Below are positions 21,001 to 27,000 of a stretch of 64,000 nucleotides of DNA, one piece after another. The position numbers are program-made. Each line of letters begins with the position of its first letter. Position 1 is the stretch's first letter. This DNA is from Opitutia bacterium (lineage in GTDB: Bacteria; Verrucomicrobiota; Verrucomicrobiia; Opitutales; T3Sed10-336): the NCBI GenBank assembly GCA_050506795.1, contig JBJHCF010000009.1, positions 32,001-96,000 of the forward strand, written 5' to 3'.

Positions 21001-24000
21001 AGCCGGAATCGAGCTGGAACGGCTAAAAACGGGCACGCCGCCTAGACTGCTGGGACGCAGTATCGACTTTTCGGTCATGGCGGAACAGAAGGGGGATGAG
21101 GAGCCGAGTCTCTTCGGATTCTACGACACCCGCAACGGGGAAGATTTGTTCCACGTGGAACAATCCGAAGAACGCCGGCTGGGGTGGACTCCGGGCGAGA
21201 AGCAGGTTTCCTGCTTTATCACCTACACCACGGAGGAAACCGAGAGAATCGTTCGCGAAAACCTCCACCTGTCCCCAATGTACAGCGGACAGATCGAAGG
21301 CACCGGCCCTAGATATTGTCCGAGCATTGAAGACAAGTTCGTTCGGTTCCCTGACAAACCCAATCACCGTTTTTTCCTGGAGCCGGAAGGGCGCAATACG
21401 AATGAGTATTACATCAATGGCTGTTCCACCAGCCTGCCGTTGGATGTGCAGATCGCGATGATCCACAGTGTGCCCGGTCTGGAGAAAGCCGTTATTCTCC
21501 GCCCGGCCTATGCCGTGGAGTACGATTTCGCCCCGCCTACGCAGTTAAAGCCGTCCCTGGAGTCTAAAAAGGTGGAAAACCTCTTTTTTGCGGGACAAAT
21601 CAACGGAACCTCCGGATACGAGGAGGCCGCGGCGCAGGGTCTGGTGGCCGGGTTAAACGCGGTGCGCAAGGGCAGGGGAGAGGAGCCCATGGTTCTCGGA
21701 CGGCACGAGGGCTATATCGGCGTGTTGATCGACGATCTGGTCACCAAGGGAACCTCCGAACCCTACCGGATGTTCACTAGCCGGGCGGAGTACCGCCTAC
21801 TTTTCAATCACGGCAGCGCGGAGCTGCGGCTTCGTCACCACGCCCGGCAGCACGGCCTTTTATCCCCAGCTCGCCTGGATCGAATCGAAGCCAAGGCCAA
21901 AGCGATTGAGACCTGGATCCAGCGATTGGAGTCGGAAAGGGCAGGGGAAGGGACCTTTGCCGAACGCGCGCGCCGCCGGGAATCAAACATTCCCTTCCCG
22001 GCGGATTTTCAATCGCTTCCCGCCGCGGTTCAGGAAGAGGTGCTCTACCGGGTCGTATATCGTGGGTACCTCGAACGCGAATTGAAGCAGATTGAAAAGC
22101 TTTCCCAGGTAGAAAACGTGCGCCTCCCGGAAACCATTAACTTTCTCACTATTAATGGCTTACGAAATGAAAGCGCCCACAAACTCGACGCCATTCGTCC
22201 CCGAACCCTCGGCCAGGCCAGCCGCATCAGCGGCGTCAATCCCGCCGACATCAACATCCTGATGGTTTATCTCGCGGGCAAACGGAAGAAGAGCTGAATT
22301 CGTGTTCTCGGACCGTTGAATTCACGCCAGCGCGGCGCAGCTGCAACCAGGCTTCCCTGACCACAGCTCATGATCGACTGCGGAAATCGGTCTGCACCGC
22401 AGAGACGGGAAGGGCGCAGAGGATCGGAATCGAGACCGATGAATTGCCAGTATCGGCTGTTTCAACCTCAATGGCAGCTCAAGCGGTCGATCTCACTCAT
22501 GCTCTGAATGGAGATTTGATCGAGTCCACAGTCTTACCTCTGCGCTCTTCCATTCTCTGCGGTGCAGATACTATTCCTTTCAGCAGTAACTTGATCGTAA
22601 CAGTTGCCTCGTTCCCGTATCGGCAAAAATAAGCGTCATACTAGGCCGAAAATTTTGCTCAAAAAACAGAAATTTGCGGTTTGTAGTACAGATGCCAAAG
22701 TGGATCGACCGGGAGCGATTCTTCGAATGCGCGGAATGTACCGCAGAACCCGGAGTCTGTCCGGCTTGGCAGACGGACAGTTGATCGTTCTATTTTGGTG
22801 TGAGGTTAACGAATCATCCAAGTTAGCGGAATTTGGTCTCACACGGAGGCACAGAGACACGGAGAGTTTGACCGGACCCGCCTCCGTGAGCTCTCTCCGG
22901 CCTGAGCTCGTCGAGGGCGTGCCTCCGTGTGATCATTTCCTCTCCCGGTCTTGTTATGGGTTCGTTACCTCCAGTCTTCCAGTCTCAGTCCTGGGAAGTC
23001 CTGGAAGTGCCGGACATTCAAAGTGGCGAGAACTAGCCCGTGGTGAAGGGCCGTGGCGGCGATCAGCAGGTCGAAATCCGCCCGGGGGAGTCCCGCGGCT
23101 TCCTGTTCGGCTTTAAGCCGGGCAAAGACGGCGGCAACCCCTTTGTCCACGGCCAGTACCGTGAGACGATCCTCCAGATAGTCGCGGTACTCCCGCCAGA
23201 GACGGTCTGATTGTTTTTTCTCCAGACCGTAAAGCAGTTCGGCTTCCGCTATGGCGGGGATTGCCAGAGCCGAATCGCCCAGTTCCCGCCAACGCCGAAT
23301 CACCACTGGCAGCGGGTGAGGGCGCAGCCGCTGGGAGTAGACGCTGGTATCAAGCAGGTGAGTGATGGTTGCCATTTAGAACGGGGTGGGGCGGTTGCGG
23401 GCGGGATTCCTGGCCGGCAGCTCCAGCTCTTCCGTAATCGGCCCGTAACGGGCCTGGGCCTCCTCCACCGTATCCCAGACCGACCCGGAGGACTCGTCCA
23501 CCGGCACTATTCTCACCAGGGGCTTTCCCCTCCGCGTAACCGTGCACGGCTCACCGCTCCGGGCCACCTGGTCGCAAATCTCGGACAGACGATTCTTGGC
23601 ATCAAACAGACCAAAGGACTTCACAAAAGACAATCTAGCTGTCTGGCTGTTTTTGTCAATCCTGAGTGTGGACGATTCGTTATCGGAAGCAGGGTAGCGA
23701 ATGGCACGGTTAGGGCGGTGGATCGAAGGCGCATAGCTAAATCGCATCGGCCGTTCCCCTGATAGGGGTAGGGACGACGCATTGGTTTGCGTCGCCCCTC
23801 CCTCCGAACCGGACTGGCGGATCTCTCGCATCCGGCTCTCCAGTCAGCGCATTTTGCTCCGTTATGGAGACTGGAACTCCTTCACACGGGCTTCTTCCAG
23901 GCAGAAGAGCCCGAGCTCTGCAAAGTAGCGGTTGGGCCAACGTTGATGATCCACGCCTCGGGCTCTCCCACGAAGCTTCTTTCGCTTGCGCAGGATCGCT

Positions 24001-27000
24001 CGCAGACGTCCTCGCACCCAGCCATCCATCTCTCCAAGGGCTGCCGGTTCGGCTTGTTTGAAGTAGCCATACCAGCCTTTCAGGCTCGGATTGATTTTCT
24101 GAATGATTGCGTTCATGCACTCTCCGTTGGTCCGTTTGGTCAGGGGCTTGAGACGGGCTTTGAGCCTCTGGCGGCTTTTCGGCCGGATGTAGCGCGCGAT
24201 GCGGCCGCGTTTGTTTCGCCAAAACCGGTAGCCGAGGAAGTCGAAGTGACTCCCCGATTCGGTCAGCGCCACAACCCGCGTCTTTTGCGGGTGCAACTGC
24301 AATCCCGCCTCTCTCATCCAGCTTTCAACTTCAGCCAGCGCTCGTTGCGCCGTCTCCGCGTCGCGGCACAGGACGACCATGTCGTCGGCATACCGCACCA
24401 TTTCGTAGCCCTTTTCCTTCAGCAGATGATCCAGAGGATTGAGGTAAATGTTCGCCAAGAGCGGGCTGATGATTCCGCCTTGCGGCGTGCCTTCCTCCCT
24501 TTCGGCCTCCACTTCCATTCCCTCCATCACGCCTGCTTTCAGGAATCCTTCGATCATTCCCAGCACACGCCTGTCGGCGATGCGTCCCCCGACCAGCTTC
24601 ATCAGCCGGTCGTGGGGAATGGCGTCGAAGTAACCTTTGATGCCGATGTCCACGACGTGCGAATAGCCGCTTTTGAGCAGCGTGTCCACCTGCCGCAGAG
24701 CATCTTTGCATCCGCGTCCGGGACGGAATCCGTAACTAGCGGGAGAAAACTCGCTCTCGAAGATCGGTTCGATGACCATCCTCAAGGCGGTTTGCACCAC
24801 CCGGTCGCGCACCGTCGGGATTCCCAACGGACGTTTCTCCGGGCTGCCCGGTTTTGGAATCCAAACCCGTTTGATCGACTGGGGTTGGTAGGCGTTTCGT
24901 TCGATTTGCTCTTTCACGGCGAGCAACCGAGTTTGGCTGTCTTTTGCGAAACGTTTTACCGTAATGCCGTCCACGCCACAAGCCCCTGCGTTGGAATGCA
25001 CCTTTGCCCAAGCCAATTCAAGGGTCGTCGCCTTTGAGACTTTGTCGATAAGGCTGAACCACTTGTTTCCTTTGACCCCCTTGTCGAGGGCTTCCAGCAT
25101 CTTCTCGCTCCATATCCGGCGTTCGGCCTTATGGCGTTCCCACAAGTCCTCTTCTCCTTGTTTATCCGTTTCCGAAACTGACGGAGATTTTCCTTCGCTT
25201 TCCATGGTCATGGAAGATTCGCCTTCCTGCCGTCCTTGGCTCCACCGGCGTTACCCGGCTTCATCACTACTATGACGGCTCTGACTTCTGACGGCGTTCG
25301 CTTCCCGAACTCCTGATTCCGCCAGATCTCCATACGTCCACATGATACCTTCCCCGCGTTCTCACACCAACCACCCGCCGACGCCCATGACTGCATCCTT
25401 GGCGTCGGTCCTGACGCGTCATGGTCGCTCCTTCCGGAGCAGGCTTCGCCAATCCCTCGCAGGCTCGCCGCTTCAGTAGGCCAAATCGTGTTCACTCTCG
25501 TTTGGGACCGCAGGTCCGCTTCCGGCTGCTCCCCACCCCGCCTCACGGCGACGCAGTTGCCTTCAGCTGATCTTCCCCTTGACGCTTCGGAAGATTTTGG
25601 ACTTTCACCATTCGATTTCATGTATGTGTATTCGCACGAGGGCGGCGCTCCCGCGCCGCCGGTGCGGGCAGGATGCCCGCGCTCCCAACCCGGCGGCGCG
25701 GGAGCATGGCCCTCCAGGCGAATTGCCGATGCGATATTTGCGAGCATTGATCGGCATGTCTTACCGAAGATTCTCAAATCCAAAATCTGCGATCTGAAAA
25801 GCGTTTTCAATCCGAAGGCAGGTTTCCTCTGGATTCCGGCGGTGTTGTGTGATACTGCAGGACAATGCGTTATATCCTGGGCCTCGACCTCTCCACTCAA
25901 AGTTTCTCTTCGGTGCTTATCGATCCCGACGACAACCGGGTTGTCGATACGGAATCGGTGAATTTCGGCAAGGACCTCGCCCACTACCGCTCGCCGAACG
26001 GTTTTCTGCCGGAGACGGAGGACGGTCAGGTCCACTCCGATCCGCGCATGTGGCTGGAAGCGCTCGATCTGTTGCTGAACCGGATCCAGGCGAAAGGGAT
26101 CGATTTGAGCCGGGTGGCCGCGGTTTCCGGCGCCGGGCAACAGCATGGCAGCGTCTATCTCGACGCCGGCTGGTTCGACCGTCTGGCCGCCTTGAAGGCC
26201 GACGAACCATTGGTGGATCAAATCGCTCCCGCGTTTTCCCGCGCGACGTCTCCGATCTGGATGGACAGCTCGACCGGCGCGGAGTGCGCGGAAATCGCCG
26301 CAAGTCTCGGCGGCGCGGCGGAAGTCTGCGCCCGAAGCGGGTCGGTGGCGATCGAGCGGTTCACCGGGCCCCAGATCCGGGCGTTCTGGAAGCGCGATCC
26401 CGACGGCTACCGGCGCACCGCCCGTATTCATTTGGTCAGTTCGTTTATCGCGAGCCTTCTCGCCGGCCGCGATGCGCCCATCGACCACGGCGATGGAGCG
26501 GGCATGAACCTGGCGAATATTCATACTTGGAGCTGGGACGACGACCTGGCGAAGGCGACCGCGCCGGACCTCATTGAAAAACTGCCACCGCTGAAACCTT
26601 CGGCGACCGTGGTCGGAACGGTCGCGCCGTATTTCCAGAAAAAATACGGCTTCTCTCCGGAGGCGCAGGTCGTGGCGTTCACCGGGGACAATCCCAGCAG
26701 CCTGATCGGCATGGGCGCCGGCACACCCGGCCGGGTGGTCATCAGTCTCGGCACCAGCGACACCCTGTTCGCCGCGATGGAGGAATGCCACACCGATCCG
26801 CAGGGGTTCGGTCATGTCTTCGGCAATCCAACCGGCGGCTACATGAGTCTGCTCTGCTTCCGCAACGGTTCGCTGGCGCGAGAGAAGGTGCGCGACCGCC
26901 TGGGCGCGAGCTGGGACGATTTCGATGTCGACGGTTTGAGCACCACGCCGCCCGGAAACAACAACAACCTGATGATTCCCTTTTACGGCGCGGAGGTCAC

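Follow-up and report, generated by a model that had tools for sequence, protein, structure and literature searches.

Two group II introns inserted at the same register of hairpin arms in a REP-like repeat of an Opitutia bacterium

Results

The locus and its 1876-nt intron

We analyzed a 64,000-nt stretch (the window) of contig JBJHCF010000009.1 from an Opitutia bacterium (assembly GCA_050506795.1), which harbours the only full copy in this genome of a group II intron (Table 1). The intron opens with 5' GTGCG at 25637 and closes with 3' CCCTAT at 23762, and it carries the GUGYG…AY ends, domains V and VI, and RT/maturase that together define a group II retroelement. The first-pass annotation had described it as complete and bearing an AGC triad, which is confirmed by both ends, the Rfam match to domains V–VI and an intact reading frame. 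No joint that skips the intron was seen in an RNA run, the contigs of which came from a relative.

Table 1. Features of the intron locus (positions in the window).
Feature	Position	Strand	Remarks
Phd/YefM antitoxin and PIN toxin pair	22965..23659	-	neighbour; own promoter-like TTGACA-17-TAGATT downstream of the intron
3' exon	23700..23761	-	IBS3 = C at 23761, then repeat flank of the type usual after arm B
Complete group II intron	23762..25637	-	1876 nt; AGC triad; unclassified endonuclease-less lineage
Domains V and VI	23762..23840	-	Rfam RF00029; AGC triad in domain V
Intron-encoded RT/maturase	23862..25211	-	449 aa; YADD; short C-terminal helical part; no endonuclease domain
EBS3 (G)	25371	-	partner is first base of 3' exon; Watson-Crick in 30/32
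Putative alpha/alpha-prime kissing pair	25416..25585	-	alpha 25580-25585, alpha-prime 25416-25421; 6-nt complement here
EBS1 guide loop GAGGG	25454..25458	-	pairs with exon -1 to -5, on the basis of covariation
delta (25459) and delta-prime (25482)	25459..25482	-	paired in 37/37, one compensatory change
IBS1 (CCCTC)	25638..25642	-	last 5 nt of 5' exon; junction sequence
Composite REP-like repeat	25638..25719	.	arm A, inner hairpin C (25664-25685), arm B (ends 25715)
Target hairpin, repeat arm A	25641..25660	.	8-bp stem, 4-nt loop
FGGY carbohydrate kinase	25865..27445	+	neighbour; divergent from the intron

The intron-encoded protein passes the TIGR04416 model (397 bits; cut-off 300), and its lack of an endonuclease domain follows from Pfam domains that are limited to RVT_1 and GIIM. 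Among PDB matches, the best alignments of the predicted model are with class C maturases and extend to the C-terminus (Z 35.3, rmsd 2.7, 385 residues), a ranking that says little because maturases of classes D, E and F are missing from these matches. Beyond the aligned thumb there are 37 residues versus 66 in the Eubacterium rectale maturase, and several residues that contact the stem differ. The ORF is intact.

In the protein tree, this protein belongs to a separate clade of 27 rows (support 100/100) outside the class C clade (12 rows, 100/100, two labelled references), and the two clades form one group (97/97). References for D, E, F (g2, g3), g1 and CL1A all lie outside the intron's clade, in a tree where each of these classes is represented by one or two plasmid references, E and CL1A as long branches, and which holds no labelled references for g4, g5, g6, A, B or ML; of 89 proteins, 26 are omitted from the final tree, nearly all of them near-copies or fragments, together with the long branch L087. 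The AGC triad occurs in 31 of 35 relatives, and the other four were not parsed. Judged by its separate clade and its triad, the 1876-nt intron is not class C, in agreement with the first-pass annotation. Assignment to class g3 or class E was ruled out by 37.5% identity to Ni.ha.I1 and by the trees. One member of the clade, NZ_CP022993, is listed as ‘Unclassified’ by Miura 2022 (PMC8919778), in whose Table_3 U1, U2 and U3 are lumped together.

A second intron of class C

Elsewhere in the genome, 5' ends of another intron (contigs C50 and C62) stand after a hairpin and CCCTC, and CAG comes directly after its 3' ends (C3 and C8); the assembly gives no link between the two sets of ends. All four junctions are located at repeats. 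This intron belongs to class C (IIC), as judged by a domain V with a CGC triad, a protein of that class, an EBS1 of 3 nt and an upstream stem. Its protein is 32% identical to that of the 1876-nt intron, the same figure as in the first-pass annotation, which had called the two introns unrelated. This was overstated: their protein clades share one group and their recognition logic is common, and landing at one register is therefore expected.

The target repeat

At up to two mismatches, the genome contains 85 copies of arm A and 89 of arm B (reversed control, 0), the base after the arm being C in 154 of 174; the inner hairpin C, counted apart, has 40 copies. The earlier counts of 92 and 76 empty arms at one mismatch compare with 63 and 38 obtained here with 21-mer probes, which differ from those used before. 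Only 11 of 176 arms lie inside long ORFs, though these cover 77% of the genome, and the 174 arms form 110 clusters, 50 of them as inverted A-B pairs. REP/BIME sequences are likewise short palindromes outside genes that occur many times over as inverted pairs, in keeping with the REP-like part of the earlier description. The element is a mosaic of three hairpin units and more BIME-like than MITE. No cognate RAYT was found beside the repeat: of 16 Y1_Tnp matches, several of them at contig ends, a single one lies within 1.5 kb of an arm, and this gene carries other hairpins of its own.

Published REPs are extragenic, form stems of 6-9 bp and end in a GTAG, GYAG, GYRG, GTRG or GTMG tetranucleotide, and GTAG-/CGTC-tagged REPs in dimers are described as abundant in O. 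terrae (Di Nocera 2013, PMC3733652; Quentin 2018, PMC6006769). The present repeat differs from the latter in its GGAG foot, which is absent from the available text of these two surveys, and in having no flanked RAYT that we could find. The GTAG, GCAG and GTGG feet at the relatives' sites fit the published consensus. This genome's repeat is a REP by resemblance only.

Both introns are inserted at hairpin-CTC^C. Like most relatives, they split off the last base of the complement of a GGAG/GTAG/GCAG/GTGG-type foot, as the first-pass annotation had stated. Its claim of a single shared base needs amendment, as the 1876-nt intron sits after arm A (stem-loop, then CTC, with a 3' exon that opens CAG) and the class C copies after arm B. 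What the two introns share is their register within two related arms rather than an identical base. None of 75 empty arm-A copies is followed by the 3' flank of the 1876-nt intron, against 35 of 80 arm-B copies; the locus consequently has no exact empty allele, and its exons form a mosaic in which arm A is combined with an arm-B flank. A clean empty allele was not found, and the 54 BLAST matches spanning the junction fit arm B and its own flank.

Target recognition across relatives

Exons were scored at 35 clade loci, drawn from 52 after removal of 15 without a usable 5' end (including the ambiguous L063) and two with exons shorter than 25 nt. EBS1 is Watson-Crick paired at exon positions -1 to -5 in 19, 18, 18, 17 and 16 of 19 non-redundant introns, with a covariation excess of 7.9-11.6 at these positions, where the 95% maximum from permutation is 7.5. 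Among the same 19 introns, no position from -6 to -25 passes this threshold. A 6-nt match next to the EBS1 stem was attributed to chance and discarded as an EBS2 candidate: it lies in a conserved motif and shows no covariation. In the consensus fold, the EBS1 hairpin directly follows the D1d stem, which leaves no space for D1d2/EBS2 on its 5' side. Most relatives have a 5-6 nt complement at the putative alpha/alpha-prime positions.

A stem of at least 6 bp precedes the site at 29 of 35 loci and in 18 of 19 non-redundant introns, compared with 12% of 1800 control sites and, among introns from other classes, 1 of 11, which bears out the earlier observation of such a stem. It mostly ends 2-4 nt before the insertion site, and its position is kept while its sequence changes completely from host to host and among the copies within a genome. 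On comparative evidence, the lineage thus shows the class C traits of a missing EBS2, a stem upstream of IBS1 and an EBS3-IBS3 pair. Terminators were rejected as the target of this lineage, since a T-rich tail occurs in only 2 of 35 loci; the stem scorer itself is no measure of terminators, as it reaches back only 6 nt and failed to detect one of the two terminator references from class C.

The foot is GGAG, GTAG, GCAG or GTGG in 22 of the 31 read, and the relative L070 sits at a repeat of CGTC type that is present in 139 copies. The target is often a repeat elsewhere, with at least 10 copies in 11 of 19 other hosts tested and one or two in seven; one host was ambiguous. A betaproteobacterial sub-clade occupies single-copy hairpins of other kinds, with A or C at +1, and L082 (two EBS1 mismatches) and L047 (weak stem) are further exceptions. 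Close relatives in three other sequencing runs carry EBS1 GAGCG, a guide that would suit inner hairpin C. Dozens of other assemblies show the same register, a complete chromosome (L062) among them.

In the class C sub-lineage, 30 relatives, counted without de-replication, all have 5' exons that end CTA, CTC or CCA, as had been noted in a smaller set; two more distant relatives have GCC. The +1 base is C in 26 of 26 read, a stem lies upstream in 28 of 29, and the EBS1 base matches exon -1 in 29 of 30. The guides TAG, GAG and TGG are foot-type words and do not fit a T tail. We examined 38 of 80 metagenome loci, eight of them without a 5' end; the other 42 were below 65% identity or partial.

Discussion

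The two introns and most of their relatives apparently find their sites by the shape of a hairpin and a short RNA guide. We consider it probable that both introns, as endonuclease-less retroelements, recognize a DNA hairpin and a few bases after it in the manner of class C introns, and that REP-like repeats have become their main landing sites because of guides adapted to the complement of the REP-type foot. Sequence comparison shows EBS1 paired with the last five exon bases in the lineage of the 1876-nt intron, in which EBS3 pairs with the next base and EBS2 is undetectable, and with the last three in the class C sub-lineage, in which EBS1 and the invariant +1 C cover exactly the four foot bases. 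By analogy with class C biology, the target may be single-stranded at the replication fork, the stem may be held by protein and ribozyme in place of an EBS2-IBS2 pair, and the fork may prime reverse transcription. Many-copy extragenic repeats would offer safe, renewable sites, and single EBS1 changes could shift an intron between repeat variants.

The same distribution could arise if any strong stem with matching IBS1 and IBS3 were used, terminators included, and selection left REPs as merely the commonest harmless hairpins, with no specialization. In this genome, 134 of 236 sites (57%) with a 7-bp stem and CCCTC^C are already repeat arms (inner hairpin C excluded), and the single-copy targets of seven hosts, the other hairpins of the betaproteobacterial members and the U1 and U2 introns placed after predicted terminators by Miura 2022 (PMC8919778) all agree with such generic targeting. 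We regard it as unlikely, given that class C guides are foot-type words that misfit a T tail, and that arms make up about 10% (136 of 1341) of stem + CTC^C sites (inner hairpin C excluded), yet four of four class C junctions are at repeats. Surviving insertions have been filtered by selection, which counts against our preferred explanation.

Classical homing, in which a IIB-type ribozyme recognizes IBS1 and IBS3 together with an IBS2 that escaped detection, the protein reads the flanks and the palindromic nature of the repeat makes the hairpin incidental, would suit the AGC triad, an EBS1 that at 5 bp is longer than that of class C, and the statement that a DNA stem is ‘exclusive to IIC introns’ (Chung 2022, PMC10190682). 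Covariation that stops at -5, and a stem kept in position but wholly different in sequence between hosts and between copies, make this reading improbable. Least credible of all is that repeats joined intron ends to the wrong flanks during assembly. The draft genome has 82 contigs, the class C copies are split at contig ends and the exons of the 1876-nt intron are mosaic; against this, error-free contigs of the probable source run span its 3' junction by 40 nt and its 5' junction by 30 nt (non-independent data, the latter one below a 31-nt rule), the register is repeated in dozens of assemblies, the complete L062 chromosome among them, and misjoins cannot produce EBS1 covariation.

Several known systems share features with these introns or their targets. 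Class C introns at terminators and attC sites likewise combine the lack of an endonuclease with a stem, a short spacer, short IBS1 and IBS3, and no EBS2 (Zimmerly and Semper 2015, PMC4424553; Chung 2022, PMC10190682). The targets here differ from those described there in being repeat hairpins without a T tail, and the 1876-nt intron differs further from class C in its AGC triad, 5-bp EBS1, shorter C-terminus and protein outside the class C clade. The first-pass annotation had held that only three specificities are known, which is overstated. The g6, U1 and U2 introns, close to class C as is the clade of the 1876-nt intron, are often found right after predicted terminators (Miura 2022, PMC8919778), where, in the sections consulted, terminators and not repeats are named and guides are not analyzed. 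Two of nine Pseudomonas putida group II introns are tabulated as REP-associated in a single table row, the only mention of introns in the main text (Tobes and Pareja 2006, PMC1525189). REP-targeting IS elements also use REPs as many-copy landing sites, but with transposases (PMC1525189). Group IIB introns near integrons are likewise non-IIC introns in hairpin-rich arrays (Sonbol and Siam 2021, PMC7923331), but they encode CL1 and E proteins, and hairpin-dependent targeting is not shown in the portions of that study available to us. Our literature searches, in which most subscription papers fell outside coverage, returned no title on introns that target REPs.

Stem-linked targeting in the lineage outside class C was unexpected. 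A widespread AGC-triad lineage that adjoins class C may lack EBS2 and need a DNA stem; it may thus represent a living intermediate between the target recognition of IIC and IIB and, together with the foot-guided class C sub-lineage, may make REP-type repeats a fourth specialized intron target, with EBS1 tracking the repeat variant of the host; we give this broader proposal an even chance. Some of the ‘terminator’ neighbours in surveys may be REP-type repeats. A hairpin and a 5+1 base guide, retargeted by single changes, could serve as a simple tool for multi-copy extragenic insertion. EBS2 has been proposed to have evolved as the replacement of the DNA stem (Chung 2022, PMC10190682), and this proposal becomes directly testable in a lineage that combines a IIB-type catalytic triad and a 5-bp guide with the lack of EBS2 and a stem at almost all of its sites. 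Introns would also join IS elements as users of REPs.

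Results

The window carries a complete group II intron whose ORF encodes a 449-aa RT/maturase lacking an endonuclease domain; its YADD motif and catalytic aspartates appear intact in the predicted protein. The 5' exon forms an 8-bp stem with CTC at its end, and the 3' exon begins with CAG. A separate class C (IIC) intron in the same genome is broken at contig ends: hairpin plus CCCTC precedes its 5' ends (contigs C50 and C62), and CAG comes next after its 3' ends (C3 and C8). These junctions bear out the first-pass annotation, which had placed both introns at the hairpin-CTC^C of one repeat, and the feature is real. 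There is also a third intron family, with no hairpin upstream; its 5' ends lie on C49 and C72 and its 3' ends on C7 and C79, probably from two copies that are divided between contigs. A 3' intron fragment lies on C14, and C31 bears an interrupted copy of class C type.

Location of the window intron and of other features (window positions unless a contig of the source genome is named)
Feature	Position	Strand	Remarks
Complete group II intron	25637 to 23762	minus	1876 nt
RT residue 190	24642-24644		Gly; relatives nearly always have Asp
Phd/PIN toxin-antitoxin pair	22965-23659		Just downstream of the intron; promoter-like site of its own
Second Phd/PIN-looking pair	27261-28126		After a kinase gene; judged by eye
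Arm B, then the window intron's first seven bases, then normal flank	C18:67385	+	
Arm B, then the window intron's first seven bases, then normal flank	C18:29286	-	
Degenerate class C intron ends (86% and 91% alike)	C10:52211-54129		Preceded by inner hairpin C; enclose an opposite-strand 464-aa ORF instead of an RT, with a ferric-reductase/FAD-binding look (by eye)
Y1 transposase-like ORF	C16:89491		Other palindromes inside or alongside, GTAG-footed
Y1 transposase-like ORF	C27:32827		Other palindromes inside or alongside

The target repeat had been described as a REP-like MITE. Its arms A and B occur in 85 and 89 copies, respectively (at most two mismatches; reversed controls, 0), and its inner hairpin C in 40. 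A cytosine continues 154 of the 174 arm copies, inverted A-B pairs make up 50 of 110 arm clusters, and long ORFs contain only 11 of 176 arms, although such ORFs cover 77% of the genome. The repeat, many-copy and mostly extragenic, resembles a BIME-type mosaic built from three hairpins whose feet (terminal tetranucleotides) are all GGAG. It may belong to the REPs, but none of 16 Y1 transposase matches in the genome is clearly flanked by it, and GGAG is absent from the accessible text of two surveys, which list GTAG, GYAG, GYRG, GTRG, GTMG and GT[AG]G (Di Nocera 2013, PMC3733652; Quentin 2018, PMC6006769). For the genome's other repeat families, the Y1-like ORFs on C16 and C27 are candidate REPtrons.

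The window intron lies behind arm A, yet its 3' flank follows none of 75 empty arm-A copies versus 35 of 80 arm-B copies. The probable source run yields error-free contigs that extend 40 and 30 nt across the two junctions, which makes a misjoin unlikely. The mosaic flanks would instead reflect recombination between two former copies, or arm conversion; both exons are in register and still belong to the repeat family. The two C18 sites may be scars of lost copies, and point changes are also possible there because intermediate variants exist.

Relatives were drawn from 401 genomes of the phylum, a genome collection and plasmids, and labelled references, chosen by accession, came from Toro 2013 (including Tables S1 and S2), Toro 2014 and Miura 2022. 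In a 63-row tree, the window protein falls within a 27-row clade (100/100), outside class C (100/100); the other classes compared, with D, E, g1, g2, g3 and CL1A references, also lie outside this clade. The two introns had been called unrelated. Their proteins are indeed only 32% identical and belong to separate clades, but both clades share one 97/97 group, which also takes in a small third clade and a further unclassified protein. The accessible table of Miura 2022 (PMC8919778) lists a window-clade member on NZ_CP022993 as "Unclassified, canonical", and the clade may correspond to Miura's U1 or U2. The domain V triad is AGC in 31 of 35 clade introns (four were not parsed). Elsewhere, loci L018, L019 and L035, which have a long 5' region, form a further protein clade close to class C, the candidate 5' ends of the first two being preceded by a short CCTGAAAGG-type palindrome. 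The unclassified intron L112 follows a hairpin that carries a T run and has an IS200/IS605 tnpA next to it.

From 52 clade loci, 37 had a 5' end; exons of at least 25 nt were available for 35 of these, of which 19 were less than 90% alike, the window intron included. Each exon position from -1 to -5 has its partner among five adjacent loop positions (EBS1), paired in 19, 18, 18, 17 and 16 of these 19 introns, every count above the 95% permutation maximum; no other loop/exon pair out to -25 exceeded that maximum in these 19 non-redundant introns. EBS3 pairs with +1 in 30/32, delta with delta-prime in 37/37, and in the consensus fold the D1d stem leads directly into the EBS1 hairpin. The lineage thus appears, from covariation and fold, to use EBS1 and EBS3 without a detectable EBS2. 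That these relatives mostly land behind a stem is confirmed: 29/35 (18/19 non-redundant) have a stem of at least 6 bp whose end is no more than 6 nt from the site, versus 12% of 1800 flank positions, and an 8-bp stem occurs in 10/19 versus 1%. Only 1 of 11 other-class introns has such a stem. The stem-to-site gap is 2-4 nt in 25/29, +1 is C in 26/31 read, and 22/31 imply a GGAG, GTAG, GCAG or GTGG foot; as kin are not independent, these stem and foot counts overstate the number of events.

Repeat targets had previously been seen in few other genomes. Among 19 other hosts, 11 carry at least 10 copies of their target (58, 11, 18, 27, 140, 139, 22, 58, 25, 15 and 18, mostly counting the occupied site; controls 0 or 1), but seven carry 1-2 copies and one is ambiguous; the targets of L041, L047, L054, L082, L084, L095 and L106-L108 lay outside these tests. 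Three of four tested Pseudomonadota hosts count as misses, their sub-clade sitting on other hairpins. The betaproteobacterial members L074, L077 and L106-L108 have GTACG as their first bases and all have the same single-copy hairpin, whose last bases are TTAGT; on pBN3, the intron of such a member lies between two tyrosine recombinase genes. Another genome, G401, holds seven copies of two clade members (L038-L042, L048, L049 and L064), each member with its own hairpin family.

For the class C intron, 38 of 80 metagenome loci (at least 65% identity) were taken as its sub-lineage. All 30 with a 5' end, not de-replicated, have 5' exons ending in CTA (17), CTC (11) or CCA (2), extending the earlier observation of these endings; two more distant relatives end in GCC. 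+1 is C in 26/26 read, a stem is present in 28/29, and TAG, GAG or TGG forms the EBS1 loop, with -1 matched in 29/30. The three guide bases and the +1 base exactly cover the four foot bases.

Discussion

Both introns most likely apply the class C recipe of stem, short spacer, IBS1 and IBS3 (accessible text of Chung 2022, PMC10190682), which alone explains their shared register. In this genome, repeat arms account for 134 of 236 sites that combine a 7-bp stem with CCCTC^C, so the window intron's guide is almost enough to pick out the repeat. Among stem-plus-CTC^C sites, which are those open to the class C intron, the proportion is 136 of 1341, and selection or extra recognition must therefore contribute. 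Close relatives of the window intron in three other runs carry EBS1 GAGCG, which fits hairpin C. The protein may touch the DNA stem. The modelled window RT aligns best with class C maturases, up to the C-terminus, and it keeps some thumb residues (R308, R349, R353 and K361, E. rectale numbering) while others differ, its C-terminal part being ~30 residues shorter than in the E. rectale maturase.

The first-pass annotation held that only three intron specificities were known. The accessible parts of the reviews agree, with three given by Zimmerly and Semper (PMC4424553) and IIC named for hairpins in PMC12584367, but accessible surveys already place g6, U1 and U2 introns directly behind predicted terminators (Miura 2022, PMC8919778) and associate two of nine P. 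putida introns with REPs (Tobes 2006, PMC1525189). The accessible text of Leclercq 2012 and that of a separate paper, PMC1590033, add nothing further on REPs. No work on introns that target REPs surfaced in our literature search, which did not extend to subscription papers or to Miura's figure, sources that may bear on novelty. Hairpin targeting, then, is already known, as are survey-level hints for non-C lineages. What appears new relative to the accessible literature is comparative, guide-level evidence for a stem-following AGC-triad lineage without EBS2, together with a class C sub-lineage that would read the REP foot.
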